From the NCBI GenBank assembly GCA_964398505.1, contig CAYNMZ010000001.1:394-64393 (forward strand): a DNA stretch of 64,000 bases, written 5' to 3'. The notes under the pieces are model-generated. The model was not told the origin of the DNA. It saw nothing but the letters and a program-made list of their open reading frames with translations, and did not search any database. Positions 17,706-35,057 of this stretch are shown one piece after another (the first letter of the stretch is position 1; each line of letters opens with the position of its first letter). The translations under genes and the position numbers were made by a program. The stretch comes from an uncultured Spirochaetia bacterium (GTDB lineage: Bacteria > Oederibacteriota > PGYV01 > CAYNMZ01).

Positions 17706-19541
17706 TTGGGACGATACTTTCATTTAATCGCCGGTTTTTTATCCGGCTGTACTACCGGCGCTGTTTTTTTCGTGTCCCTGAACAGTGGCGCTGGCCTTGC
17801 CAGCCCGCAGGCCGCGGCCTTTGCGGCCGGTTTCGGCGCAGCAGCCTGTATTTTGTGTTTTTTTATGGACCGCTGCGTCGCTTTTTCAAAAGGAAATACA
17901 TCAACAGGCCTTGGCGGCCTTTCAATGCTCATATACCTTATTCCTGTTATGGGAATTTTCGCGCTTATTACTCGCGGCCTTGTGTTCGGCAAACTGGCTT
18001 TGGTAAAAACTTCGGTGTTCGGCGCGGTTTACCTGCCTTTTTCAGGTTTCATCCGGCCGCAAATGCCTGAATTTTTCCTTATACTTTGCGTTGCCGCGCT
18101 ATGGATAACGCTTTTTTTCATAATAGCCTTAGTTTTCATAAAAAACTATTATATTTCAGGCGCGGACAGGGAAACTGAAAGGACGGTATTTTTGTTTTCC
18201 CTTGTTTTTTCAGTCCTCACGACATCATGGATAACGCTCACATACCCGCCTACCGGTGATGAACCGCATTACCTTGCTGCCGCAAGCTCAATAGCGCATG
18301 ACGCTGACCTTGACCTTGTCAACAATTATGAAGGAGCGCGCGAAAACAGGCTGCTTTTCATAAAACCCGCAGACTATGAAAGGCTTCATACAATAAGAAA
18401 AAACGGAAAAATCCTTCCGGCGCATGACCTTGGCCTGTCAATAATGCTGGCACCAGCGGTAAAACTCGGAGGAAGATACTGGGTTCAATTTTTAATTAAC
18501 ATCTGCGCGGCGCTTTTGTGCCTGTCCGTTTTCTTGTTGCTGATTAAGCTGGGAATACCGCGAAACATAGCCGCCGCCTCAGCCATGCTCTCTTCCGTAT
18601 CCGCCCCGCTTATTACAGGCTCTTCTCTTGCCCTTACCGAGGTGCCTGCGGCCGCAATAACGGCCTTCTGCCTTTATGTGCTTGTATCTCCGCAAAAAAC
18701 CCGCAATACGATCCTCTTTTTCTTGCTCATATCATTCCTTCCGTGGCTGCACGCCAAGCTGGCCCTGCTTTCAGCTGCCTTTTTTATGGCATATTGCGTC
18801 ATGAACAGCCTCAGGAAAAGCCTGTTTACGCCGTCCTTCTTTTCCGGAATCGTAATGGCGGCAGCTTCCCTGGCAGGATATCTTTTTTTATACGGCTCTG
18901 TCTACGGCATGGCTGGCCCTTTTGGAATAAAACAGCTTCACGAGAACATATATTCGGACAATCCCGCTGAACAGCTGAATACCTTTGTAATTACCGCGCC
19001 ACATTTTTTCACTTCGCTTTTCGCTTCCCTGTTTGACAGGGATTATGGCCTTTTTACAAGCTGCCCGGCATTTGTACTTTCATTGTTCGGTTTAGCGCTT
19101 GCTATAAAAAGAAGGGAAATCAGGATTTTCTCCGTATTCTTGCCGCTTATTCCTTATCTTGTTGTTTTTCTTTTCTGGAAAGACTGGACCGGCTCAATGA
19201 CACCTGCAAGACAGCTCATCCCCATCATTCCCTTTTTTATTTTCTCAGCCGCTTATTTTGCCTCGCATACAAATGTCATTCGGGCTTATTTTTTTAAACT
19301 GATAATTGCCGCGTCATTGCTTGCATCATGGATGATGGCCTGCCTTCCGCCGCTCCGGTATTACGCAAGCAAGGAAAAAATATACTTTTTTTCGCATGCA
19401 AAATTAGGGAAGCAGGCGCTGTGGCTTTTGCCGCCTTTTATGGAAAATACCGCTGCCGGGTTTACGGTCTCATTAATTTACTTATTGATTTTATCTGCTG
19501 TTTATCTTAGTCTCACAAAAGACAGGCAACTTACTGATTAG
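17706..19541 (+). CDS. Polytopic membrane protein, probable GT-C fold glycosyltransferase (ArnT/PMT-like)
   Basis: 611 aa, more than 12 predicted TM helices; first periplasmic loop YPPTGDEPHYLAAASSIAHDADL resembles the DE-x-RYAEIA motif of ArnT/PMT (GT83/GT39); directly after the B12-rSAM gene. Confidence 0.45.
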   Translation: MGRYFHLIAGFLSGCTTGAVFFVSLNSGAGLASPQAAAFAAGFGAAACILCFFMDRCVAFSKGNTSTGLGGLSMLIYLIPVMGIFALITRGLVFGKLALVKTSVFGAVYLPFSGFIRPQMPEFFLILCVAALWITLFFIIALVFIKNYYISGADRETERTVFLFSLVFSVLTTSWITLTYPPTGDEPHYLAAASSIAHDADLDLVNNYEGARENRLLFIKPADYERLHTIRKNGKILPAHDLGLSIMLAPAVKLGGRYWVQFLINICAALLCLSVFLLLIKLGIPRNIAAASAMLSSVSAPLITGSSLALTEVPAAAITAFCLYVLVSPQKTRNTILFFLLISFLPWLHAKLALLSAAFFMAYCVMNSLRKSLFTPSFFSGIVMAAASLAGYLFLYGSVYGMAGPFGIKQLHENIYSDNPAEQLNTFVITAPHFFTSLFASLFDRDYGLFTSCPAFVLSLFGLALAIKRREIRIFSVFLPLIPYLVVFLFWKDWTGSMTPARQLIPIIPFFIFSAAYFASHTNVIRAYFFKLIIAASLLASWMMACLPPLRYYASKEKIYFFSHAKLGKQALWLLPPFMENTAAGFTVSLIYLLILSAVYLSLTKDRQLTD

Positions 19542-20220
19542 CAGCCGCCTTCTGTTCATTCTTTTTCCTGTAAAAACTTGCCGGTTTCGTTCCCAGCACA
19601 TATACCCTGGCCTTTCGGCGTCCCCACTTGAAAGCTTCCTGCGTCGTGTTATAGCAAAGGTCTATTTTTTTGCCCTTAATGGCTCCTCCCACGTCTCCGG
19701 TCCAGGCGAACCCGTATCCGTCAACATATATTAGCCTTCTTAAAGGTATTACCCTCGGGTCCACTGCCGCAATGCCGTAGCGCGCTCGCCATCCAAGACT
19801 TGTTATTCCGGCCCATTCTACGCTGTTTGACTCAGGCGACGGGTCATAAGCCGTAGCTTCAACATCATGATAGACATGTACATATGTTTCTCTGGGAACG
19901 TTTATTGGATGCTTTTTATCGGAATTCCCAGTAATTTTCATTGCATTTTTTGGCTTTTTAATTATCCCTGTCCTGTAAACGGTTTCCTCGCCAAACTTTA
20001 TCCCTGCCAAAAAATATGCTTTTTTGACCGCGTTTGCAAACCCGGTCTCGCCTTCATCCAGCCATACGGTCCAGCCACTCTGTATAAAATCGCTTTTTCT
20101 CTCGATTATTTTAAAAGGAATTTCCTCTTTTACAAACACGGCTTTATTGTAATATGTTGAAGCGACAAATACGGCAAAAGTCCATAAAGATATAAACATG
20201 ATTTTTAATACTGTCCCCAA
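19531..20220 (-). CDS. 3D-domain (MltA-like) protein, secreted
   Basis: N-terminal TM/signal, C-terminal 3D domain with conserved Asp residues (GIAAVDPRVIPL...YVDGYGFAWTGDVGGAIKGKKIDLCY). Confidence 0.7.
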   Translation of the reverse strand: MGTVLKIMFISLWTFAVFVASTYYNKAVFVKEEIPFKIIERKSDFIQSGWTVWLDEGETGFANAVKKAYFLAGIKFGEETVYRTGIIKKPKNAMKITGNSDKKHPINVPRETYVHVYHDVEATAYDPSPESNSVEWAGITSLGWRARYGIAAVDPRVIPLRRLIYVDGYGFAWTGDVGGAIKGKKIDLCYNTTQEAFKWGRRKARVYVLGTKPASFYRKKNEQKAAANQ

Positions 20221-20221
20221 A

Positions 20222-21292
20222 TCAGGCCACCATTTTCCTTGTCTTTACGGAATATAGCCTGAATTTTCCCGTCTTTCCCTTAAGCTCAGCCGCCGGAAGT
20301 TCTTCAACAACCACATTTTTTTCCACCAAAGCGTATATATCGTCGCTTATTATCACCTGCCCGGGGCCTGCCTTTGAACAAAGCCTGCTTGCAAGGTTCA
20401 CCGTATCGCCAATTACCGTATATTCCATCCTTTGCTCGGAACCTACGGTTCCTGCTGTCACAATACCGCGCGCAAGCCCGATTCCAAGCCCAATATTGAG
20501 TTCTCCGCCCGCCTTATCTTTCCATTTTTTTAAAAGTATTTGGAAAGCTGTCTGAACGTCAAGTGCCGCTATTATTGCCTGGTCACAGTCAAGGTATCCC
20601 CTGTGCTTTGCGGGCTCGTCAAAAACCGCTAAAATGGCATCGCCTATATATTTGTTTACCCTGCCATAATGCCTGTTTATTATCGTTGTTGCCTCTGTAA
20701 AATATTCATTAAGTATTTTTACAACTTCGTCAGCCCCTCTTGATTCAGTAAAAGAAGTAAACCCCCTCAAGTCCGAGAAAAAAATGGTCGCTGTCTTTTT
20801 CCTGTTTCCCAGGTACACTTCACCCGAACTTCTGCCTTCCAAGTGCTCCTTTACGGCAGGGTCAAGATGCCTCTCCACGGCCTTGCAGAATTTTTCCCTG
20901 TCGTCATTTACGTTATCAAATATACCCAGCAGTGTTGAAAGCACGCGTATATTCTCATTGTATATCCCCTGGATCCGAAAACTTTTTTTTCTCGCGTATC
21001 CTGGAGGCAGCAGCTGCCTTGCGGTCATCTCGTAAAGAATATGGCTCAAAAATTTTTCAAGAGCCGACTTCCCGGAAAATACTGAAATCAGAAAAACAGG
21101 CAAACCGAAAAAAACCGCGCCTAACGCGGCTGCAGAAACATATTCCGACACAGGCTTTACCGCATTGATTGATGAAAAAAAAGACAGAAAAACAGGATAA
21201 ATTGGGTCATAAACAAGGCCCATAACAATTCCGAGAAAGACGCTTAAAACAAATATGCCCTTTAAAGAATATTTTTTTTCAGGTTTTCCCAT
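20222..21292 (-). CDS. Membrane-anchored class III adenylate/guanylate cyclase
   Basis: N-terminal TM helices then CHD domain (FFSDLRGFTSFTE...YIGDAILAVFD...GTVGS); start moved to ATG 21292 (MGKPEKK), which has an AAGGAA RBS. Confidence 0.8.
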   Translation of the reverse strand: MGKPEKKYSLKGIFVLSVFLGIVMGLVYDPIYPVFLSFFSSINAVKPVSEYVSAAALGAVFFGLPVFLISVFSGKSALEKFLSHILYEMTARQLLPPGYARKKSFRIQGIYNENIRVLSTLLGIFDNVNDDREKFCKAVERHLDPAVKEHLEGRSSGEVYLGNRKKTATIFFSDLRGFTSFTESRGADEVVKILNEYFTEATTIINRHYGRVNKYIGDAILAVFDEPAKHRGYLDCDQAIIAALDVQTAFQILLKKWKDKAGGELNIGLGIGLARGIVTAGTVGSEQRMEYTVIGDTVNLASRLCSKAGPGQVIISDDIYALVEKNVVVEELPAAELKGKTGKFRLYSVKTRKMVA

Positions 21293-21947
21293 TTTTTTGT
21301 TCCTTGAACAGCGATTCAATAATGTTGAAATTAGTTTCCTTCAAATCCGATACAATCAAATCCGCTCCATTGATAGGATTTATCTTTTCCCTTCTTATGC
21401 CCACGCATTTCATTCCAGCGGCAATTGCGGCCTGTATTCCTGTCTGAGCATCCTCAAATACCACGCATTCAGAAGGCTTAAGCCCCAGTTTTCTGGCTGC
21501 TTTTATAAAAATATCAGGGTACGGCTTCCCCCTTTTGACATATGCGCCCTCGGCATCAACGTCAAAGAGGCTGTACAAACCTGCCTTTTTCAGACTGTTT
21601 GCTGCGTTGCGTGATGAAGATGCCATGGCTATCCTTATATTCCTTTTCTTCAGTTGTTTTATAAGTCTAACCGTCGAACTGAAAACCTTAATTTTGCCGG
21701 CGCTAAGGTATTTCAAAAAATACTCCTGTTTTTCCGCAAATACCTTATCTATCTGCTTTCTTGAAAAACCCGGAAGTATCCGCTTTGCTCCCTTGGCCCT
21801 TGGCAGCCCATCCACTTTGGACTTAAAATCACGGTATGTGAATTTAATTCCGTATTTTCTCAGCGCTGACTGCCATGACCTGTGATGTATGCGAGCTGTG
21901 TCTATTACTACTCCATCCACATCAAAAACAGCACCTTTAAAAGCCAT
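21279..21947 (-). CDS. HAD-superfamily hydrolase (beta-phosphoglucomutase-like subfamily IA)
   Basis: Motif I FDVDGVVID, motif IV at the C-terminal part; 222 aa. Confidence 0.75.
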   Translation of the reverse strand: MAFKGAVFDVDGVVIDTARIHHRSWQSALRKYGIKFTYRDFKSKVDGLPRAKGAKRILPGFSRKQIDKVFAEKQEYFLKYLSAGKIKVFSSTVRLIKQLKKRNIRIAMASSSRNAANSLKKAGLYSLFDVDAEGAYVKRGKPYPDIFIKAARKLGLKPSECVVFEDAQTGIQAAIAAGMKCVGIRREKINPINGADLIVSDLKETNFNIIESLFKEQKNGKT

Positions 21948-21975
21948 GTATGCTCCCTGTTTTTTTTCGGGTATT

Positions 21976-22638
21976 TCATGAGCAATAGGACTTGAGCCTT
22001 GACATATCTGTTATACTTATTTTCCTGTTGCTTGTGGTTATCGCGCCATCACCCGCCATCTGCTTCAAAGTCCTTGTGATAGTCTCCCTTGTTAAGCCTG
22101 CCATGTCAGCTATTTCCTGGTGGGTAAGCTTAACCTCGCTGTTTTCACATGAAAAATCCACAAGTACACACGCTACCCTTGTCTTAGCGTCGCCGAGTGC
22201 AAGATTCTTTATATCCCTGTCAGCTCTGGCCAGCCTGTGACAGAGTGTCTTTATTATCTGCAGAGATATGGAAGGTTCGCTGTTTATCATATGCTCAAAC
22301 TTTTCCCTGGTAATGCTCAATGTCATGGTTTTTTCCAGAGCCTCCACTGTAGCGCTCCTTGCTTCCTTTGTCAAAAGCGCCATCTCGCCGAAGCTCTCAC
22401 GTTCCTTTAACACAGCCAGGGTCTTTGTCCTGCCTTCCCTGGTATATTTTATTATCTTTACACTGCCCTTTGCTATTATATGCAGGGTGTCGCCATTTTC
22501 GCCCTCGGAAAAGATTATTCCGCCTTTTTCATAGAAATTCTCCTTTATATTCTCTGCGATTGTCTCAAGGCCTTTTTCCGCCACTTCACCGAAAAGATGC
22601 GACTGCTTAAGAATCGCGATTACCTGTTTTTTATTCAT
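21976..22638 (-). CDS. Crp/Fnr-family transcriptional regulator
   Basis: cNMP-binding domain (IFSEGENGDTLHIIAKGSVKI...RESFGEMALL) plus C-terminal HTH (HQEIADMAGLTRETITRTLK). Confidence 0.85.
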   Translation of the reverse strand: MNKKQVIAILKQSHLFGEVAEKGLETIAENIKENFYEKGGIIFSEGENGDTLHIIAKGSVKIIKYTREGRTKTLAVLKERESFGEMALLTKEARSATVEALEKTMTLSITREKFEHMINSEPSISLQIIKTLCHRLARADRDIKNLALGDAKTRVACVLVDFSCENSEVKLTHQEIADMAGLTRETITRTLKQMAGDGAITTSNRKISITDMSRLKSYCS

Positions 22639-22661: not shown

Positions 22662-25550
<2,889 letters not shown>

Positions 25551-25554
<4 letters not shown>

Positions 25555-25832
25555 TGTTTCAGCCTGAGCACTACATCACCTACGGCTTCCCTTCCCAGCA
25601 TCCTGTTTACCGAAATCTTTATCTGCTTTTTCCTGTAAGAAAGCTCGTTTAAAACAGCGCTGTTGTCGGCTTCTATAAAGAGCTTTTTTTTGTCCAGTTT
25701 AAATGGCACCGCACCTTTCGCGTAATCACCCGCAATTTCCGGCCATTTTTCAACAAGCGTTCCAAGCTCATGCCTTTGATTCAACCCTGACTTTTTTAAA
25801 AAAGCGCTTACATACTGACTGATATGCTTCAT
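25551..25832 (-). CDS. dciA: DUF721 / DciA-like protein (putative replicative helicase operator)
   Basis: 93 aa; WPEIAGDYAKGAVPFKLDKKKLFIEADNSAVLNELSY fits the DUF721 consensus; classical position upstream of gyrB. Confidence 0.55.
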
Positions 25833-27211
25833 TTTTCATTCACAAAAAGAGGCGTGTCAAAATATACGCACGAGGATACTGCCGCCATTGGGTACATAAC
25901 CGCGCCCCTTTTATCCACCGTGCAGTTATAAACGGCCTCAGCCTTTATTGAAATATTTTTTGTGGCAAAGAACTCAAAACCCAGCCCTCCAAGCCCCGCG
26001 AAATTTATTGAATTGTACTTTTCCGAGGGGCTGTTGTCAAAATACTTTCGTTCATAAGACAAAAGCCCGACTCCGGCCCCTGCTTTAGCGAACGGAACAA
26101 AAAATACGTTCTTTTTATATCCCATGTACGCGTAAAAGGTCGCAAGGAACTGCGACATCTTGAAATTAAACTCATACAGCCCTTCTTTCATGCCGTTTGC
26201 CGAAGCCAGCTCCGCCTCCACCCCTCCCTTAAAAGCGCCTGTTATGTTAAAAGTGAATTCAGCCCTGGTGCCCCAGCCCATTTGCGACTCATTTGCCACA
26301 GCAGCAGGCGCAATTATATATATGAAACTTCCTCCAAAGCCTCCTGACACCCTCGCAGGCTCCTCATCCGGCCTTTTTAAGTTAAGGTATATCCTCAAAA
26401 GCGAGGAAAATGCGTCAGGATGAGCATAAAGGTCCAGTTTTCTTTTTTCATAGGGCCTGAAAACCGCCTCACCAACCTTTGAGTTATTCTTCCTGTCAAA
26501 TATCTGTTTTGCAACCGACGCGTCGTCGTCAGTACCCCAGTAATTGTCTTTTGCTTCAACAGAATCAGGCGTAAAATTCGTAAGCGAAATCCTGTTTTCA
26601 ATGAAATTATTTTTCCTTATTATACTGCCATGCTTTTCCGCTTCGTTCAGGTATACTGCGAACCTGTTCCTTATAAAATTGTTGCCTTCGGCAATAAACT
26701 TAGCGTGCTTTCCTCCGGCGTATATTCCGTAAGTGCACCCGTAAAACACATTGTCCCTCACAGAGGCTTCAGCGAAATTACCCAGAAGCACGCCTGTGGC
26801 GTTGGCGAAATAGTTGTTCGCCAGTATTATAGGAGAACCTTCCGAGGCAACAGCCCCACGTATAACAATACAAAATTCCAGGGTATTCTTGTACTTTCCC
26901 TTGAACACCAGTCCCTCATAAAAACTCTCACCGTCAAAAGGTATGAACCTCACCGGGTTCGCGGGTTCCCCCCTGGCGTAAAGCGCGCCTTTCACCTCTA
27001 TTTTCCCGGCTTCCTTAAATTTCACGACAGTACCGGGATGTATTGTCAAAAAACCCCTCGGCCCGATTGTAACCGTATTTTCAATTATGTACGGAGACCT
27101 GGATGCTGTCCAGTTCTCGCTCCTGTCAATGCTCCCTGACACATGAGTCTCAACCGCTGCAAACAGCCAGGCAGGCCATAAAAAAAGGAGTAGAGCCGCG
27201 CTTTTTCTCAA
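25829..27211 (-). CDS. Secreted right-handed parallel beta-helix protein fused to a C-terminal outer-membrane beta-barrel domain
   Basis: Signal peptide, then beta-helix repeats (NNYFANATGVLLGN...NNFIRNRFAVYLN...NNFIENRI), then about 190 aa with alternating amphipathic strands typical of small OMP barrels. Confidence 0.55.
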   Translation of the reverse strand: MRKSAALLLFLWPAWLFAAVETHVSGSIDRSENWTASRSPYIIENTVTIGPRGFLTIHPGTVVKFKEAGKIEVKGALYARGEPANPVRFIPFDGESFYEGLVFKGKYKNTLEFCIVIRGAVASEGSPIILANNYFANATGVLLGNFAEASVRDNVFYGCTYGIYAGGKHAKFIAEGNNFIRNRFAVYLNEAEKHGSIIRKNNFIENRISLTNFTPDSVEAKDNYWGTDDDASVAKQIFDRKNNSKVGEAVFRPYEKRKLDLYAHPDAFSSLLRIYLNLKRPDEEPARVSGGFGGSFIYIIAPAAVANESQMGWGTRAEFTFNITGAFKGGVEAELASANGMKEGLYEFNFKMSQFLATFYAYMGYKKNVFFVPFAKAGAGVGLLSYERKYFDNSPSEKYNSINFAGLGGLGFEFFATKNISIKAEAVYNCTVDKRGAVMYPMAAVSSCVYFDTPLFVNEK

Positions 27212-27227: not shown

Positions 27228-29723
27228 CTACTTTATAATGTCCGACCCCTTGTCATCCTCAAGGTCCGGAAGCGGCGGCAGTTCGTCCGGAAGCGGCGGC
27301 AGCGGTTGCTCTTTTTTCGGCTGCGTCTGCGTCTTTAAAAGTTCTTCCGGAACCTTCACTGAGCTTCCCGGCATTTCCCTCTTCTTCTCAACAACGGGAA
27401 CATCAAGGTTTAATATGTCCGTCACTGTAGGCACGGCCTTTTCAGGCTGTTTTTCTGCAGGCTTGATCTGAGCAGGAGCCGCCGGTGCCGCGGCGGAAAA
27501 ATCCGGCTTTACCGTTTCTGCCGCCGGCTTTATCTGAATCTCCGGTTTTGACTCAAGGCCGGGCCTTGACTCCTGTTTTGATGCCCTGCTACCCTGTTTT
27601 TTCGGCAGGGATATTACAAATGTTTTTCCTTTTCCTATCTCGGATTCAACCCATATTTCCCCGGCCATACTGTTCACAACAGCCTTTAATATTGGGAATC
27701 TCAGGCCTGTATTTACAAATTCCGGGCCAGCCACCGATTCCGGGCCATGAAAATTTATGAATAGTGCCGCAGCTTTTGCCTGCGGCATGCTCATTCCAAA
27801 ATCGCTTATTCTCACCTGGACATCATCGCCCGCTTCCCTCGTCTCAACAATGACCTGCCCTCCCCTTGGCGAGACTTTTATTGACTGGTTTAAAATCTGG
27901 TTTATGACATTTGACAGCCTGGCAGGGTCACCGAAAGCCGTCGGAAGCGAAGGTGAAAAATTAACTTTCAGTTCAACTTTCTTTATATCAGCCTGCGGCT
28001 GTATCGCGAAAACAATATCCTGTATTATGTTGTTTATTTCCACTGGCTGGCTTACGGCCTTTATGTCACCTTTTTCCAGTTTTGCAAGTTCTGTCAGGTC
28101 GTTTATAAGCCTTTCAAGCCTTGCTGACTTGTTAATTACCACGCCAAGAAACTGCTGCTGTGCGTCTGTAATCTTGCCTTCACCGCCCAGTACCGAAGAT
28201 ATATAAGTTTTTATGACCGAAAGTACGCCTTTAAGTTCGGTATTCATCATAAGCACCGAATCCATCCTCATATTTTCCTTTTCAAACGGTACTTTTACGT
28301 CCGATGACTTCTTTGCTTCCTGCCTTAACTGCTCTGTCTCTTTCTGAAGAACAGATATCTTCTGCTCAAGAACCGCTTTCTCCGTCTCGGCCCTTTTTTG
28401 CAGGGCTTTTTTCTCAGACTCTGTTTGCTCCGTTATTTTCTGAAGTTTTTCCTCAAGAGAAGCTTTAGTGTTCTCAGCGATTTTCAACGCGTCCCTTACT
28501 TGTGATATTTCCGCGTCAGCCCTGGAAGCCTCCCTTGAAAGCTCCTCCTCAAGTTCCTTTGACATCTGCGAAAGCTTATACGACTTTTCCTCGGCAGCTT
28601 TTATCCTGCCTTTTAATATAATAAGTGAGTCTATCAACTTCCTATAATCGCCTGAACGTTCCTTAGGCAGCATGTCCTGGAAACTTTCCTCGTCTATCCT
28701 GGTGAGCGCCTTGACTATTCTATTAAGTGGTGTAAAAGGCAACGATACAGAATAAAGCAACAGCGCAAGACCTATTATAAAAGCAAACGCGATTATTCCG
28801 TAAACCGGTATTATAAATTTGATGTCCATGAAGCTTGACTCAATCTGTTTTGTCTTTTTCTTCATGAAAGCGTAATCATCATAAGGAGTAAAAACGCAGG
28901 CAATTAAACCTGTAGAAGACGATTTTTTGTAGCCAAAAAGTCCCTTTTTCCCGGCATAATTGCCTTCTTTTATACCTTCACTGGTTCCGTCATCCTCAAG
29001 AACGGGTTTTATGTCAGCCAGGCCTGCTACACTTTCAACGCCTTCCTTTGCCTTTTCAGTACTTAAAAGCACGCTTCCGGAAGTATCTATTATCATATTA
29101 ACACCGCCGGCAGACTGCCTGTCAGCGCGGACCTTTTTTGTGGCTTGATCAATATTTTTCCTTACATAAAGCACCGATACAAGCCTGTCCTTAGTGTCAA
29201 TGATAGGCACGAAAAATTCCGCTGTTCCTCCGGAAAAATCTATATCCCTTGTCATCTTTTGTGAAGGAATCGCCTGAAGAAATTTTGTGTTTCCCCTGAA
29301 CGAAAGCTTAAGTAATTCTGGCTTGTTCGCGGAAAGGACATTGCCATTCTTAAATAGAAGGGCAAGGCCGTCCTCTGACTGCTTTGCGTTCTTCTGAAAT
29401 TGTTCCCTTATTTTTTCTATGGCTTCCTGCTTTGAATAGCTGTAATTCTTTATTATGCGGTCTTCAATGATAGGTGAATACTTCTGCTTTATATTTTTCT
29501 CAGACAGAGTCTCAATGAACTGCGCAATTTGTTCAAGCTTTCCTGAAACCTGAGCCTTTATAACCTCAACTTCCTTCTGATTTTCAGCCCACATAATTTT
29601 TGCGTTAATGGCGTTAAGCTGCGCCATCCTGGCGTTGTCATAATAATAAAACAGCCCTGCCGGAACTCCCGTAAGTATCAGGGCCGCTATTATCAGTAAG
29701 AATGTAAGCTCTCCTTTTTTCAT
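27228..29723 (-). CDS. Membrane-bound histidine-kinase-like protein with extracytoplasmic sensor, long coiled coil, degenerate HisKA/HATPase and proline-rich tail
   Basis: Two TM helices flanking a roughly 280-aa outside domain; about 100-aa coiled coil; H-box position reads MNTELKGVL (no His); HATPase N-box present but G1 reads DFGMSM; C-terminal PLPPLPDELPPLPDL. Confidence 0.6.
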   Translation of the reverse strand: MKKGELTFLLIIAALILTGVPAGLFYYYDNARMAQLNAINAKIMWAENQKEVEVIKAQVSGKLEQIAQFIETLSEKNIKQKYSPIIEDRIIKNYSYSKQEAIEKIREQFQKNAKQSEDGLALLFKNGNVLSANKPELLKLSFRGNTKFLQAIPSQKMTRDIDFSGGTAEFFVPIIDTKDRLVSVLYVRKNIDQATKKVRADRQSAGGVNMIIDTSGSVLLSTEKAKEGVESVAGLADIKPVLEDDGTSEGIKEGNYAGKKGLFGYKKSSSTGLIACVFTPYDDYAFMKKKTKQIESSFMDIKFIIPVYGIIAFAFIIGLALLLYSVSLPFTPLNRIVKALTRIDEESFQDMLPKERSGDYRKLIDSLIILKGRIKAAEEKSYKLSQMSKELEEELSREASRADAEISQVRDALKIAENTKASLEEKLQKITEQTESEKKALQKRAETEKAVLEQKISVLQKETEQLRQEAKKSSDVKVPFEKENMRMDSVLMMNTELKGVLSVIKTYISSVLGGEGKITDAQQQFLGVVINKSARLERLINDLTELAKLEKGDIKAVSQPVEINNIIQDIVFAIQPQADIKKVELKVNFSPSLPTAFGDPARLSNVINQILNQSIKVSPRGGQVIVETREAGDDVQVRISDFGMSMPQAKAAALFINFHGPESVAGPEFVNTGLRFPILKAVVNSMAGEIWVESEIGKGKTFVISLPKKQGSRASKQESRPGLESKPEIQIKPAAETVKPDFSAAAPAAPAQIKPAEKQPEKAVPTVTDILNLDVPVVEKKREMPGSSVKVPEELLKTQTQPKKEQPLPPLPDELPPLPDLEDDKGSDIIK

Positions 29724-29752
29724 ATAAGTCCTCCCCGGGCGGCTTGGCCCGA

Positions 29753-32230
29753 TTATTCCTCTTCCTTTTCTTCTTCTTCCTCTGCTATCCTGGCCACAGC
29801 ACTCACCTTTTCCGCATCCTTAAGCTTGATGAGCCTTACGCCCTGGGTATTACGTCCTATAGTCTTTATATCAGCGACTTTTGTCCTGATAAGCGTTCCC
29901 TTCGTCGTTATTATCATAAGCTCATTAGTATCATCAACCAGCTTGATCGAAACAACCTGCCCGGTTTTTTCCGTTGCTTTTATATTTATTAATCCTTTGC
30001 CGCCCCTGCTCTGCATCCTGTACTCGGAAACCTTGGTCCTTTTGCCAAAACCGTTTTCTGTCACTGTAAGAAGTGTTCTATTCTTTTCATCCGCAGGTAA
30101 AACTGTCATGCTGACAACCTTGTCCTTTTTGGAAAGAGTAATCCCCTTAACGCCCATGCCTGTCCTTCCTATTTCCCTGAAGTCCTTCACCTTTGTCCTT
30201 ATTGCCATGCCTTCCCGGGTGGCGATGAAAAGCTCGTCCTTTTCGCCGGCTATCTTGGTCTCAATCAGGGAATCGCCGTCGTTGAGCCCTATCGCTATTA
30301 TGCCGCCTGACCTGGGATTGGAAAAAAGCTCAAGGTTTGACCTTTTTACAAGCCCGCTTTCTGTCACCATCATCAGGTACCTGTCGTTCTTGAATTCCTT
30401 TACAGAGACGTAGGCCGCTATCTTTTCGCCTTCCTCAAGCTTTAAAAGGTTTACTATTGCTTTCCCCCTTGTGTTACGCGCGCCTTCTGGTATTTCGTAA
30501 ACTTTCAGCCAATGGCAACGCCCTTTGGAAGTGAAAAACATAAGGTATTCATGGGTATTTGAAACAAAAAGGTCCTCCACGAAATCCTCATCCTTGGTGT
30601 CCATGGCAATTATTCCCCTTCCGCCCCTTTTCTGCGCCTTATACATGGAAACCGGTGTCCTTTTGATGTATCCGGCGTGGGTTATGGTCACAACCATATC
30701 CTCTTCCTGTATCAGGTCCTCGACGGAAAGTTCCTTTTCCCTCTGTATTATCTCCGTGCGCCTCGCGTCGCCGTACTTTTTCTTTATTTCTTCAAGCTCG
30801 CCGGCCATAAGCGCGAATATTTTTTTCTCGCTTGCGAGAAGCTCCTTTAAACTCTTTATCAGCTTCTGCAGTTCGTCATACTCCGCGTTTATCTTTTCAA
30901 TTTCAAGTGCCGTAAGCTGCTGCAGTCTCATGTCCAGTATTGCCTGCGCCTGAATCTCGGTAAGCTCAAAACTCTCAATTAACCCTTTTTTCGCGTCCTC
31001 AACGCTTTTTGATGCGCGTATAAGCTTTATAACCCTGTCAAGATATTTTAACGCAATTTTTAGGCCTTCAAGTATGTGAGCCCTTTTTTCAGCCTTGTCA
31101 AGCTCGAATTTTGCCCTGCGTATTATTATTTCCTTCCTGTACTCTATAAAATTATCTACAAACTCCTGTATATTTAATATCTTAGGCCTATTATTCACAA
31201 GGGCAAGAAATATTATTCCAAAAGTGGTCCTTAAGCTTGTATGTTTGTAAAGCTGGTTTAGAACTATCTCAGGATTTTCGTTTCTGCCTATCTCTATTAC
31301 CGCCCTCATGCCGTCCTTATCAGATTCATCCCTCAATCCCGTTATACCTTCTATCTTCTTGTCCCTGACAAGATCGGCAATACTTTCAATAAGCGCGGCT
31401 TTGTTTACCATGTAAGGCAGCTCGGTTATCACTATCTGCTGCCTGCCGTTCTTTTTTTCCTCGATTTTCGCCTTTGCCTGCATAGTAACGGAGCCTCTGC
31501 CCGTTTTATAAGCGGATTTTATTCCTTCCATGCCGATTATATAAGCGCCTGTCGGAAAATCCGGGCCCTTTATTATCTTTAATATGTCATCTATAACATT
31601 TTTCTTTTCCAAATTTTCAAGCCTGAAAATAACCGCGTCAATTACCTCGGTCAGGTTGTGGGGGGGTATGTTTGTGGCCATGCCTACAGCGATGCCGGAA
31701 GAGCCGTTCACAAGAAGATGCGGAAACCCTACAGGAAAAATTACAGGTTCTGTGTTTGATTCGTCATAAGTTGGGATGAATTCAACCGTATTCTTGTCTA
31801 TATCCGTTATTAACTCCTCTGATATTTTTGCCAGCCTTGCCTCTGTATAACGCATTGCCGCGGGCGGGTCTCCGTCAATTGAGCCGAAGTTTCCCTGGCC
31901 CTGCACAAGCGGCATCCTGTACGTGAAATCCTGCGCCATCCTGACCATAGTGTCGTAAATGGCCTTATCGCCGTGCGGGTGGTAATTACCCATGACTTCG
32001 CCGACAATCTTTGCTGATTTCCTGTAGGGCTTGTTGTAATGGAGCCCCATTGTATACATGGTGTAAATTATCCTTCTTTGCACGGGCTTTAGACCGTCCC
32101 TGATATCCGGCAGCGCCCTTCCCACAATGACGCTCATTGAATAATCAAGGTATGAAACTTTCATCTGCTCCTCTATCGGGGCTGGCACAACTTTTACGGC
32201 CGTCGGAGGCTGTAGGGGTTTTTCGTCCAT
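29753..32230 (-). CDS. gyrA: DNA gyrase subunit A
   Basis: [27 protein letters not shown], active-site Tyr region, C-terminal beta-pinwheel repeats and acidic tail EEEEEKEEE; AGGAGAA RBS before ATG 32230. Confidence 0.95.
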
Positions 32231-32310: not shown

Positions 32311-33417
32311 TCATTTCCTTATCGGCATAACCACATAAATAAAGCTTTCATCGCCCGCGGGTTTTATAACGCCGGGGTTCATGGAGCTTATCAGCTTGAT
32401 CTCAACTTCCGGCGTTTCCGTCACTTTCAAGACGTCCATGAGATACGAGGCGTTATAGGACACCTCAATGGGCTCGCCGTCGTACTTGGCGTCAATTTCC
32501 TCATAAGCTTCGCCCTCGTCCTGTGCCTGCGCGTTTATGAACATCTTGTCCTTTTCAAATTTCAGAATCACTATCCTCGCCTTGTCGCTGGATATTGTCG
32601 AGGCCCTGCGTATGCAGCTTTCCATCTCAGCCTTTGAAACAACGGCTGTCATCCCGAATTCCTTTGGTATCACCTGGCTGTAATTCGGGTAATTCTCGTC
32701 AGTTATCCTTGATATTATGTCTATATTATCCAGCTTAAATTCAACAACCTTGCCGTAGAAATTAATCTCTATATCCTTGTCGTCCTTCCCTTCTATTATC
32801 CTGGCCACTTCATTGATGGTTTTTAAGGGTATTATGTAGCTGAACTTGGCCTTTACCGATTTTTTCATTTCCTTTTTATAGAAAGCCAGCCTGTGCGCGT
32901 CAGTGGCAACAGCCTCCACTGTATTTCCCTCAAACTTGAAAAACACACCGTTTAAATTCCTTTTTGAAGTGTCCTTAAGCGCGGCGTATGATATGTTTTT
33001 AAGTATTTCCTTCAGCTGTTTTTGCGGCATGGTGATTGACTCAAGTTTTTTGTCTTCAGCCTGTAAAAGAGGGAAATCCTCTGCCGGAAGGCCGGGTATC
33101 CTGTATGAGGATTTCTTGCACTGAAGCTTTATATTGTCGTTTTTATCCGACTCTATTTTTATTTCATCATCCGTAAATTCCTTGATAAGCGACACAATCT
33201 TCCTGGGTATGGTTGTCCTTCCTGGTTCCTCAACCTTGCTTACCCTGCATTTTATCTTTACCGACATGTCCATATCAGTGGCTGAAAAATTCAGGGTATC
33301 CCCTTCTGCCTCAAAAAGTATGTTTGAAAGCAACGGCAGGGTGGATGTCGCTGGTATAAAACACTGGGCGATCTGCAGGGAGTCAAGGATTTCCTTTTTA
33401 TTTGTCTTTATCTTCAT
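32311..33417 (-). CDS. dnaN: DNA polymerase III beta sliding clamp
   Basis: 368 aa; three-domain beta-clamp, directly downstream of dnaA. Confidence 0.95.
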   Translation of the reverse strand: MKIKTNKKEILDSLQIAQCFIPATSTLPLLSNILFEAEGDTLNFSATDMDMSVKIKCRVSKVEEPGRTTIPRKIVSLIKEFTDDEIKIESDKNDNIKLQCKKSSYRIPGLPAEDFPLLQAEDKKLESITMPQKQLKEILKNISYAALKDTSKRNLNGVFFKFEGNTVEAVATDAHRLAFYKKEMKKSVKAKFSYIIPLKTINEVARIIEGKDDKDIEINFYGKVVEFKLDNIDIISRITDENYPNYSQVIPKEFGMTAVVSKAEMESCIRRASTISSDKARIVILKFEKDKMFINAQAQDEGEAYEEIDAKYDGEPIEVSYNASYLMDVLKVTETPEVEIKLISSMNPGVIKPAGDESFIYVVMPIRK

Positions 33418-33707: not shown

Positions 33708-35057
33708 CTATTTTTTTACCCTTGCAATGAGCTCATCCACGGTATTTTTGAACTTATCGTCGGATTTTATAAGTTTTTCTATTTTCTCATTGGCGTGCAT
33801 TACCGTGGTGTGGTCCTTGCCGCCAAAATACTGCCCGATCTGCACCAGGGAGTAATCCGTAAGCTGCCTTGTTATGTACATTGCTATCTGGCGCGCGGTA
33901 GCTATGTTCTCCGGGCGCTTTTTTGAGGAGAGGTCCTGTATTTTTATGTTGAAGTAATCAGCCACGATCTGCTGTATCAGGTCTATGCCGATCTTTTTTA
34001 CGGCCTCAAATGACGGGTTCGTGGTCTTGATAGCCTGCTTGGCAAGGTCCAGGGTTATTTCCCCGCTGTTCTGGGCGGCAATGGCCGTCAGGGTAAGCAG
34101 CGTGCTGCTTAAGTACCTGACATTGTTGTCCACATGCTCAGCTATGTAACCTATGACATTTTCGGGAACATGCTTGTTAAGCTCGGCCGCTTTCTGCTTT
34201 AATATCGCGACCCTAGTCTCAAAATTAGGCGGCTGTATGTCAACTATGATACCGGCTGATAGGCGGGATTTTATCCTGTCCTCTATGTTAAGCTCCTGCG
34301 GAGGTGAATCGGACGTGGCCACTATCTGCTTGTTGAGGTTGTAAAGGTCGTTGAAGGTGTGAAAAAACTCCTCCCTGGCCTGAACGCCTTTCTGCAGGTA
34401 CTCAATGTCGTCCACAAGCAGGAGGTCGACGCTCCGGTATTTTTCCTTGAACTCGTCAGTTTTGTTCTCGCGTATTTTCTGGACGAGCTCAAACAGGAAC
34501 TTTTCCGCTGTTGTGATAAGTATCCTGGAAGAAGGAGACCGCTCGTACAGGTAATTCCCTATCGCGTGCAGAAGATGCGTTTTGCCAAGGCCGACGCCCC
34601 CATAAATGAAGAGCGGGTTGTATGTCTGGCCCGGAGCCTCGGCAACAGCCCTGCAGGCAGCGTGCGCGAACCTGTTGGCATCCCCGACAATGAAGTTATC
34701 AAACTTGTACTTTGTATTAAGGTAGGGGATGGACTCGGCTTTGGAGTCAAGCGGCAGCTGTATCTGCTGTTCCTTTATTGTGATTTTCGGGGAGTAATCT
34801 TTTTTGGCCAGTTCCTTCTTAACTTCTATTGAAAGCGTCACGGCAGGGTCCAGGTATTTACGCAGAAAGACAAGAATGTCGTCAGTATACTTGGCTGTGA
34901 TTGTTTTTTTGTGAAGAGGGTCCGGAACTTCAAGAGTGAAGACTTTGTCATTCTCGCTGTAATTGGCTTCTGACTTGTCCAGCCAGAGCTGCAAGTTGTT
35001 GTTTTCAGTCTTTATTTTTTCAAGAATGCTGTTTATCCTGTCGTTTTCAGCTGACAT
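33708..35057 (-). CDS. dnaA: Chromosomal replication initiator DnaA
   Basis: 449 aa; Walker A GGVGLGKTHLL, C-terminal DNA-binding GGKDHTTVMHA; AGGAGGG RBS. Confidence 0.95.
   Translation of the reverse strand: MSAENDRINSILEKIKTENNNLQLWLDKSEANYSENDKVFTLEVPDPLHKKTITAKYTDDILVFLRKYLDPAVTLSIEVKKELAKKDYSPKITIKEQQIQLPLDSKAESIPYLNTKYKFDNFIVGDANRFAHAACRAVAEAPGQTYNPLFIYGGVGLGKTHLLHAIGNYLYERSPSSRILITTAEKFLFELVQKIRENKTDEFKEKYRSVDLLLVDDIEYLQKGVQAREEFFHTFNDLYNLNKQIVATSDSPPQELNIEDRIKSRLSAGIIVDIQPPNFETRVAILKQKAAELNKHVPENVIGYIAEHVDNNVRYLSSTLLTLTAIAAQNSGEITLDLAKQAIKTTNPSFEAVKKIGIDLIQQIVADYFNIKIQDLSSKKRPENIATARQIAMYITRQLTDYSLVQIGQYFGGKDHTTVMHANEKIEKLIKSDDKFKNTVDELIARVKK

Follow-up and report, generated by a model that had tools for sequence, protein, structure and literature searches.

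Why is a membrane receptor with the core of a histidine kinase (HK), in which the phospho-accepting histidine has been replaced, encoded directly beside gyrA? The question is raised by a 64,000-nucleotide stretch of metagenomic DNA (contig CAYNMZ010000001.1, positions 394 to 64,393; hereafter the window), deposited under an uncultured Spirochaetia bacterium, in which an open reading frame (ORF) for a protein of 831 amino acids follows gyrA on the minus strand. The original prediction, made from the sequence letters, took the product for a histidine-kinase-like membrane protein without the acceptor histidine, possibly a pseudokinase or scaffold, and pointed to its unusual position inside a replication-gene cluster. 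Based on alignments, structure prediction and genomic comparisons, we report that the protein is very probably a pseudokinase, and that the position is the most informative point of all, since the adjacency to gyrA persists where all other neighbours have changed. The literature on pseudokinases with gyrase or gyrA, on kinases downstream of gyrA, on Goldbacteria and on Firestonebacteria yielded no description of this family, which suggests that it is undescribed.

Domain architecture and predicted structure

A word-index search identified about 52 full-length orthologues with 45-69% identity, the named ones coming from metagenome-assembled genomes (MAGs) of Candidatus Goldbacteria (Goldiibacteriota); the scores fall from 659 bits to 369 (two relatives matching in the N-terminal part only) and then to about 100 (generic kinases). 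An AlphaFold2 (AF2) model of the window protein was built on 30 orthologues (mean predicted local distance difference test, pLDDT, of 70). Hydropathy, the model and Pfam reproduce the originally proposed order of a transmembrane (TM) segment, an extracytoplasmic domain, a second TM segment, a coiled coil, a HisKA-like region, a HATPase_c domain and a proline-rich tail. DHp and CA denote the dimerisation and histidine phosphotransfer and the catalytic and ATP-binding domains:

27228-29723, minus strand: pseudokinase ORF, 831 amino acids; ATG start preceded by a GGAGG Shine-Dalgarno sequence
29640-29708, minus strand: TM1, residues 6-28 (hydropathy scan; helix in the AF2 model)
28818-29639, minus strand: extracytoplasmic dCache-like putative sensor domain, residues 29-302 (AF2 pLDDT ~90; dCache_1 matches in orthologues)
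28746-28817, minus strand: TM2, residues 303-326 (hydropathy scan)
28584-28745, minus strand: HAMP-like linker, residues 327-380 (helix-loop-helix in the AF2 model)
28278-28583, minus strand: coiled coil of about 100 residues and fixed length, residues 381-482 (single helix in the AF2 model, and alignment)
28068-28277, minus strand: DHp-like helical hairpin without histidine, residues 483-552 (alignment to HK853; orthologue alignment)
27597-28067, minus strand: CA (HATPase_c) domain with altered nucleotide-binding motifs, residues 553-709 (Pfam, HK853 alignment, Foldseek)
27231-27596, minus strand: disordered tail rich in Pro, Lys and Glu, residues 710-831 (AF2 pLDDT 29-44; composition)

The periplasmic part (about 275 residues between the TM segments, pLDDT ~90) is modelled as a long helix followed by alpha/beta modules. 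The dCache_1 family (PF02743) is matched by 13 of the 30 orthologues at E < 0.01 (best E = 1.7e-5); the window protein itself has no PF02743 match and gives instead a weak Cache_3-Cache_2 match (E = 0.08). Behind TM2 the model contains helices at residues 331-341, 348-351 and from 359 onward; the Pfam HAMP profile (PF00672) gives no match in the window protein at E <= 0.1, and two relatives carry the NCBI name 'HAMP domain-containing'. From these models, the periplasmic domain appears dCache-like and the linker HAMP-like. There follow a single unbroken helix (359-473), a helical hairpin (480-551), an alpha/beta domain (559-707) and disorder (714-831).

Pfam detects HATPase_c at residues 598-709 (E = 4e-15) and, partially, HisKA at residues 501-552 (profile positions 17-66), a match that stops short of the H-box and reaches 22.4 bits against a gathering score of 26.9. 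The NCBIfam histidine-kinase models all score far under their cut-offs (PnpS, for example, 137 bits against 400), and no curated Pfam or NCBIfam model claims the protein. Foldseek, run on the AF2 model, retrieves the cores of WalK, HK853, DivL, ZraS and RetS, with E-values of 1e-13 to 1e-18 for HK853, WalK and DivL, and hence the predicted structure also indicates a histidine-kinase core, at the moderate confidence of its cytoplasmic part.

Catalytic residues

Residues were mapped by phmmer against PDB sequences, aligning residues 483-718 to HK853 (2c2a) with E = 3e-26; over this range the alignment is unambiguous. The acceptor histidine H260 corresponds to T495, within MMNTELKGVL, and T264, the phosphatase residue four positions further on, to G499 (for the motif H-E/D-x-x-T/N see PMC12963549). 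In the N-box, the Mg-binding N380 corresponds to Q613; in the G1 box, D411/G413/G415 correspond to D641/G643/S645 (DxGxS), and in the G2 box G441/G443/G445 correspond to N671/G673/R675, turning GTGLGL into NTGLRF. The four altered motifs are located as follows:

28227-28241, minus strand: degenerate H-box T495-E-L-K-G499, with Thr for the histidine and Gly for the phosphatase Thr/Asn (HK853 alignment)
27864-27908, minus strand: N-box VINQILNQSIKVSPR, with the invariant Gln613 for the Mg-binding Asn (HK853 and orthologue alignments)
27789-27803, minus strand: G1 box DFGMS (DxGxS) (HK853 and orthologue alignments)
27693-27761, minus strand: lid and G2 box FINFHGPESVAGPEFVNTGLRFP, almost invariant, with Asn671 and Arg675 for glycines (alignments)

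Both losses that had been read directly from the sequence, that of the H-box histidine and that of the G1 glycine (DFGMSM instead of DxGxG), are thus seen in the alignment to HK853, and the changes at Q613, in the NTGLRF form of G2 and at Gly499, which had not been noted before, extend the support at sequence level for a pseudokinase or scaffold. All these changes are fixed among the 30 orthologues: position 495 is Thr in 24 and Asn in 6, and S645, Q613, N671, R675 and F676 are invariant. No histidine occurs anywhere in the DHp region (residues 483-552) of any of the 30, which rules out an acceptor elsewhere in the dimerisation helix, and the sole conserved cytoplasmic histidine is H659, in the lid.

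When the orthologue profile was searched exhaustively with HMMER against 1.84 billion representatives, distant proteins with the same architecture and a His-less core were found in Firestonebacteria and at least three further lineages; all family members come from uncultured organisms. With the Goldbacteria orthologues as group A, the distant groups are:

Group B: 900-1200 amino acids; high-GC, peat and soil MAGs
Group C: 750-840 amino acids; one member annotated Candidatus Firestonebacteria
Group D: about 560-1070 amino acids
Group E: P0154, P0188 and P0219

In overall comparison, the proteins of groups B and C share 21-26% identity with the window protein; for groups D and E the figure is that of local matches, 29-33% over 255-398 residues. 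All groups share ELK or DLK behind the variable H-position, then VIK.YIS, and in helix 2 the signature QQEFLG.VIN(K/R)SARLE. The H-position is occupied by Thr or Asn in group A, by Ser, Ala, Met, Gly or Asn in group B, by Asp or Glu in group C and by Glu in group D, never by His, which is absent there from group E as well. The residue four positions on is the invariant Gly499 in group A and Ala, Ser or Asp in groups B and C; the position of the Mg-binding Asn holds His in group C, and the third G2 glycine is Arg or Lys throughout groups A-E. As a control, all HK-like proteins gathered were aligned to one profile, in which the 103 family rows invariably lack His at the acceptor position and show either Gln or His in place of the Mg-Asn; the 194 ordinary histidine-kinase matches have the canonical residue in 163 (His), 175 (Asn), 172 (G415) and 172 (G445) cases.

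Judged by these alignments, the kinase, phosphatase and canonical Mg-ATP-binding signatures are all altered, and we consider it highly probable that the protein is a pseudokinase, in which catalytic activity would have been lost.

Association with gyrA

The genes of the cluster in which the pseudokinase is embedded are, in the direction of transcription:

33708-35057, minus strand: dnaA, upstream of dnaN and gyrA
32311-33417, minus strand: dnaN, upstream of gyrA
29753-32230, minus strand: gyrA (Pfam DNA_topoisoIV and DNA_gyraseA_C)
29724-29752, minus strand: gyrA-pseudokinase spacer of 29 nucleotides (nt), with the GGAGG Shine-Dalgarno sequence and a GC-rich hairpin, without a T-run terminator
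25829-27211, minus strand: NosD-like beta-helix protein with signal peptide, following the pseudokinase (Pfam and neighbour annotation)
25551-25832, minus strand: dciA (DUF721), in the same-strand cluster
25288-25554, minus strand: remB-like ORF (NCBIfam MtxRegRemB 24.6 bits, cut-off 40)
22662-~25307, minus strand: gyrB, closing the tightly packed same-strand cluster

The order on the minus strand is therefore dnaA, dnaN, gyrA, pseudokinase, NosD-like, dciA, remB-like and gyrB. The gene had been described as lying between gyrA and gyrB, which is correct as to order; its direct neighbour is gyrA only, at 29 nt, and gyrB is three genes downstream, separated by the NosD-like, dciA and remB-like genes. 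The spacing to the NosD-like gene is 16 nt, 4-nt overlaps follow, and a scan of the intergenic spacers from dnaN to gyrB in the window found no terminator-like site.

We checked the loci of 20 GTDB species representatives, three divergent orthologues and about 20 metagenome contigs within the Goldbacteria. In all of these loci (~40) gyrA is directly upstream of the pseudokinase gene, and the gene order of the window recurs in each, GyrA being 72-79% identical to the window copy in genomes carrying orthologues. Since the whole region is collinear inside the Goldbacteria (>15 genes), synteny there is by itself weak evidence for a functional link. The distant groups, of which a sample of genomic contexts was available, are more telling, since 20 of 21 contexts have gyrA directly upstream although GyrA is 52-64%, DnaA 42-48% and DnaN only 30-34% identical to the window copies. 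In groups B and C, all 18 contexts with upstream sequence read dnaA-dnaN-gyrA (the order also found in group A) and then directly the pseudokinase gene, followed by genes unrelated to those of the Goldbacteria. In group D (L071) gyrA lies 43 nt upstream, and in the group E locus L074 the order is recF-dciA-gyrB-gyrA, the pseudokinase gene then overlapping by 4 nt. An in-frame start overlapping the gyrA stop by 4 nt is found in 14 loci, plus further gene calls that include L074. No gyrA lies near the ordinary histidine kinases (L028-L031, L070) that the same pattern scans brought up.

Only gyrA thus stays constant as a neighbour, and the flanks change around the gyrA-pseudokinase pair. Because this holds whatever the flanks, we slightly favour, from the gene orders, a functional link to gyrA or gyrase over its absence.

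Conservation and a natural deletion variant

In the 30-sequence alignment conservation peaks in the DHp region, with a column identity of 0.95, followed by the CA domain (0.78), the C-terminal motif (0.76), the HAMP-like linker (0.72), the coiled coil (0.67), the periplasmic domain (0.59) and the remaining tail (0.37). Across the 386 residues that span the HAMP-like linker, the coiled coil, DHp and CA there is a single gapped column, and therefore the length of the coiled coil (~100 residues) is fixed, as would be expected if signals still had to pass from the sensor to the dead core in a register-dependent manner. Given that the DHp region is the most conserved part and that the altered residues are invariant, selection rather than decay is acting, and the altered core is, by these sequence measures, under strong purifying selection. 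More than 100 sequences carry an intact ORF. A function-less relic of a decaying histidine kinase, for which only the lost catalytic residues speak, is refuted by these data (intact frames, 95% DHp identity, 386 residues essentially free of insertions and deletions, invariant altered residues) and has practically no probability left.

Two related MAGs (L006 and L007) provide a natural variant, in which a protein of 490 residues occupies the slot between gyrA and dciA. It matches residues 1-437 and 763-799 of the window protein, so that the sensor with TM2 and the HAMP-like linker is retained, together with half of the coiled coil and with tail motifs 1 and 2 (described below), while the DHp-CA module, the PPLP tip and the NosD-like gene are all missing. 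In the Goldbacteria, core, PPLP tip and NosD-like gene go together, and the variant suggests that the sensor and the tail still serve a function open to selection once the pseudokinase core is gone. In one further locus (L024) the N-terminus of the pseudokinase is missing, possibly through a frameshift or an assembly problem.

The C-terminal tail

The tail of the window protein (residues 710-831, 16% Pro) contains PLPPLPDELPPLPDL and ends in PLPPLPDELPPLPDLEDDKGSDIIK. Three conserved motifs can be distinguished:

27396-27431, minus strand: tail motif 1, PTVTDILNLDVP, with the family consensus hydrophobic-D-x-hydrophobic-hydrophobic (alignments)
27336-27374, minus strand: tail motif 2, MPGSSVKVPEELL (orthologue alignment)
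27231-27299, minus strand: tail motif 3, PPLPDELPPLPDLEDDKGSDIIK, the C-terminal acidic-hydrophobic tip (76% column identity)

Across the family the tails have a median length of 150 residues and 18% Pro, and they carry acidic-hydrophobic motifs of which the letters vary between groups and are conserved inside each, the pattern being common to all. These are PTVxDLLSFD in group A, one to five copies of [NKD]FDx[IL]FG in group B, [FY][FY]DL[ST]xFMG in group C, repeats of G[GL]LD[SA]L[IL]SK in group D and TLDLNALFA in group E; the C-terminal tips read DDKGSDIIK (A), MDDLNxMLG (B), EDLDxLLxDIExID (C), GDLIE (D) and SDEIIQE (E). At least one copy of hydrophobic-D-x-hydrophobic-hydrophobic is present in 78 of 109 family tails, compared with 19 of 170 control kinases (last 150 residues). 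The original prediction of docking through PxxP elements stands in part: the PPLP element is specific to the Goldbacteria, and what is shared by the family are the acidic-hydrophobic motifs in a proline-rich disordered tail, from which docking may still be proposed. Such a pattern fits the recruitment of a conserved partner, possibly through several contacts at once.

Binding of the motifs to the beta clamp was considered, by comparison of DLLSF, FDxIFG and DL[ST]xFM with QL[SD]LF; the register is inconsistent, which leaves this as a minor possibility. The GyrA C-termini have the usual short acidic tail only, with no family-specific docking element.

Proposed function and alternative explanations

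The best reading of these data, in our opinion evenly balanced between right and wrong, is that of a pseudokinase scaffold, controlled by a signal and tied to GyrA. The protein would be a transmembrane receptor on a histidine-kinase chassis that has given up phosphotransfer. Its periplasmic dCache-like domain would sense a ligand, and the signal would travel via the HAMP-like linker and the fixed-length coiled coil to the DHp-CA module, which may serve as a conformational switch or binding platform, similarly to DivL, acting with the disordered, motif-bearing tail. This role is proposed for the module because it lacks the acceptor His, the Mg-Asn, the full set of G1/G2 glycines and the phosphatase residue: in a core unable to use canonical phosphotransfer the output would be altered binding, with the invariant DHp face and the tail as the candidate surfaces. 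Co-expression with gyrA, often by translational coupling, would point to gyrase or origin-proximal replication proteins as the target system. Most likely, then, the protein would link a cue from the envelope or from outside the cell to DNA gyrase, or to the origin-proximal replication machinery, via protein-protein binding.

Direct binding of GyrA by the tail or the DHp region is a more specific proposal, and an unlikely one. Slightly more doubtful is the full version of it, in which the membrane receptor would bind GyrA or the gyrase holoenzyme via its tail of short linear motifs and/or its dead DHp-CA module, with ligand-dependent tethering, sequestering or allosteric tuning as the result. 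If direct gyrase binding were true, it would amount to a one-protein path from the environment to DNA supercoiling, without phosphorylation or a transcription factor. A functional link to gyrA would, in any form, make this the first receptor-type gyrase regulator and open a direct way of studying how the environment acts on DNA topology or replication; even without such a link, the family would be a clean natural case of a kinase chassis turned into a signalling scaffold. The short linear motifs and the natural DHp-CA deletion variant can guide experiments.

Several points weigh against the scaffold tied to GyrA. The confidence of the AF2 model is moderate in the cytoplasmic part (pLDDT 50-85; predicted template modelling score, pTM, 0.38). 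The DHp-CA module is deleted in the Goldbacteria-related L006 and L007, with the sensor and two tail motifs kept, which means that the pseudokinase core is dispensable there. The lid is almost invariant and D641, G643, K616 and G673 are retained, so that some binding of nucleotide or of another ligand is possible. In the group E loci L072 and L073, a four-gene cassette on the opposite strand splits gyrB-gyrA from the pseudokinase gene. The adjacency to gyrA could, moreover, be an operon structure inherited among related phyla: the Goldbacteria and the Firestonebacteria are neighbours in a marker-gene tree (PMC7031533), and shared ancestry explains part of the synteny. Finally, both the partner protein and any binding to GyrA are what we infer from the sequences.

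The alternative that survives best, possible in our judgement though somewhat unlikely, is an adaptor of the DivL type, serving a two-component pathway whose genes lie elsewhere, in which the dead DHp-CA module would bind a response regulator or a kinase and the position beside gyrA would be a meaningless inherited order. The positions of HK853 that determine response-regulator specificity (A268, A271, T275, V294 and D297) map to V503, T506, S510, V528 and N531, all of them unchanged or almost unchanged family-wide; DivL and RetS are significant matches in both sequence and fold, and the collinearity within the Goldbacteria proves little about gyrA. Such an adaptor, however, does not account for an adjacency that outlasts the turnover of every other neighbour, nor for the recurrent 4-nt overlap with gyrA, and no receiver gene is consistently nearby. 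In the window, phmmer with CheY as the query, run on every ORF of 80 amino acids or more, found no receiver domain, which rules out a cognate response regulator within these 64 kb, and there is no second histidine kinase.

An atypical enzyme that is still active is improbable. Here the CA domain would bind nucleotide and either phosphorylate Ser, Thr or Tyr, in the protein itself or in a partner, as GHKL proteins of the SpoIIAB/RsbW or PDK type do, or hydrolyse ATP as a switch. The lid and the remaining pocket (D641, G643, K616, G673 and FHG) are almost invariant, and Y507 and several Ser/Thr residues of the DHp region are fully so. Against this, the Mg-coordinating Asn is replaced by Gln (His in group C), a position at which the GHKL kinases known to us keep Asn; the G1/G2 boxes have lost three of their five glycines, in one case to Arg or Lys; and the acceptor-position residue varies freely, including Ala, Gly and Met. 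For the scaffold, this same lid, so nearly invariant (FHG...AGPEF.NTGLRFP), speaks for a function gained, either a new ligand or a new protein interface, more than for a simple loss.

A shade less probable again is an envelope function, such as polysaccharide or cell-surface sensing, carried out by the periplasmic domain together with the secreted NosD-like protein, the cytoplasmic part being a mere anchor. The NosD-like gene is directly 3' of the pseudokinase gene in all full-length Goldbacteria loci, and it is missing exactly where the DHp-CA module and the PPLP tip are missing. It is absent, however, from groups B to E, and conservation runs the wrong way, the cytoplasmic DHp region being the most conserved part and the sensor the least conserved structured one.

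Comparison with known histidine pseudokinases

The best sequence and fold matches are canonical kinases (HK853, WalK/YycG, PhoR and PnpS), which have the same order of TM segment, sensor, TM segment, HAMP-like linker, DHp and CA. The window protein has their fold and lacks all four features that are defined by sequence (the His, the Mg-Asn, the full G1/G2 boxes and the phosphatase Thr/Asn), as well as a nearby cognate regulator. It has what characterises a histidine pseudokinase, namely a kept HK fold, an absent catalytic His and purifying selection, and the invariant DHp surface and the tail motifs would be consistent with action by partner binding instead of phosphotransfer.

To our knowledge, histidine pseudokinases are represented by a few single-lineage cases such as DivL and PsmA. 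DivL from Caulobacter crescentus is described as acting by binding DivK~P and CckA, not by phosphotransfer (PMC4211667). It resembles the window protein (PDB 4q20; sequence E = 1e-16, template modelling score of the fold 0.68, with HK853 closer in sequence) in being membrane-anchored, with a HisKA-type DHp-CA fold and a replaced acceptor His. It differs in having Tyr at the His position, cytoplasmic PAS domains and a place in the alphaproteobacterial CckA/DivK circuit, and in having no periplasmic Cache domain, no long tail of linear motifs and no linkage to gyrA, whereas the window family has a variable H-position and its own changes at the Mg-Asn, G1 and G2. With Thr or Asn at the His position, a Cache-type sensor, no PAS domain and a Candidatus Goldbacteria host, an orthologue of DivL is ruled out.

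PsmA from Streptomyces is a hybrid histidine pseudokinase that binds DivIVA and acts as a protein-binding modulator (PMC12963549). The likeness lies in a His replaced by variable residues, degenerate ATP motifs, the missing phosphatase motif and a conserved gene neighbourhood not far from the origin; PsmA is nevertheless a cytoplasmic hybrid with a receiver domain, restricted to the Streptomycetaceae, and the window family keeps a near-invariant lid. RetS from Pseudomonas (PDB 6dk7/6dk8, 7n0e), which is HK-like and signals by binding the DHp domain of another kinase, gives a detectable fold match and a sequence match (E = 4e-13) weaker than that of HK853. RetS keeps a His and has a 7TMR-DISMED2 sensor and two receiver domains, with no tail and no gyrA linkage. 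By its sensor, substitution set, tail, taxon and gyrA linkage, the pseudokinase is, at sequence level, an orthologue of neither DivL nor PsmA, and its novelty with respect to both lies in several deeply diverged lineages, a complete transmembrane sensing apparatus, fixed non-canonical residues and the adjacency to gyrA.

Other features of the loci

The hairpin in the gyrA-pseudokinase spacer has a 5-bp stem (CGGGC...GCCCG, 29736-29751) and lies just 5' of the Shine-Dalgarno sequence of the pseudokinase; since no T-run stands behind it, it is not a terminator, and it might modulate translation. The C-terminal ~180 residues of the NosD-like protein resemble, by eye, an outer-membrane beta-barrel. 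Directly upstream of gyrB lie dciA and the remB-like ORF, with no recF in the cluster, a layout that recalls recF-remB-gyrB of Bacillus and recF-DUF721-gyrB of Actinobacteria; the remB-like ORF is missing in several Goldbacteria species. After gyrB, on the same strand (19531-22638), follow a Crp-family cyclic-nucleotide-binding regulator, a HAD hydrolase, a membrane class III nucleotidyl cyclase and a 3D-domain protein, a set that recurs wholly or partly in most Goldbacteria loci, several being without the Crp gene or the cyclase.

Goldbacteria GyrB proteins carry a Lys-rich extension of 50-60 residues N-terminal to the start of the ATPase domain (window 25131-25307; L001-L054), with a motif resembling the beta-clamp consensus QL[SD]LF in most, not all, species. 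Examples are NLSLF, NLDLF, SLDLF, MDLF and PELF, and the window has PGLFDE at 25200-25214. We know of no described clamp-binding motif on gyrase.

Several MAGs with clear Goldbacteria-type loci (L009-L026) are labelled 'Spirochaetia', 'Candidatus Methylomirabilis' or 'candidate division FCPU426', which are probably labelling or binning inconsistencies. In the long-read MAG of L001/L021 (7527-9978) the gene call splits gyrA into two ORFs, and dnaN and gyrA are separated by a DJ-1/PfpI gene; in one group B contig (L033, 3500-3874) a tautomerase gene takes that place. The cassette inserted in L072 and L073 is an extracytoplasmic function (ECF) sigma factor cassette, and in both genome types of group E an archease gene lies directly 3' of the pseudokinase gene.

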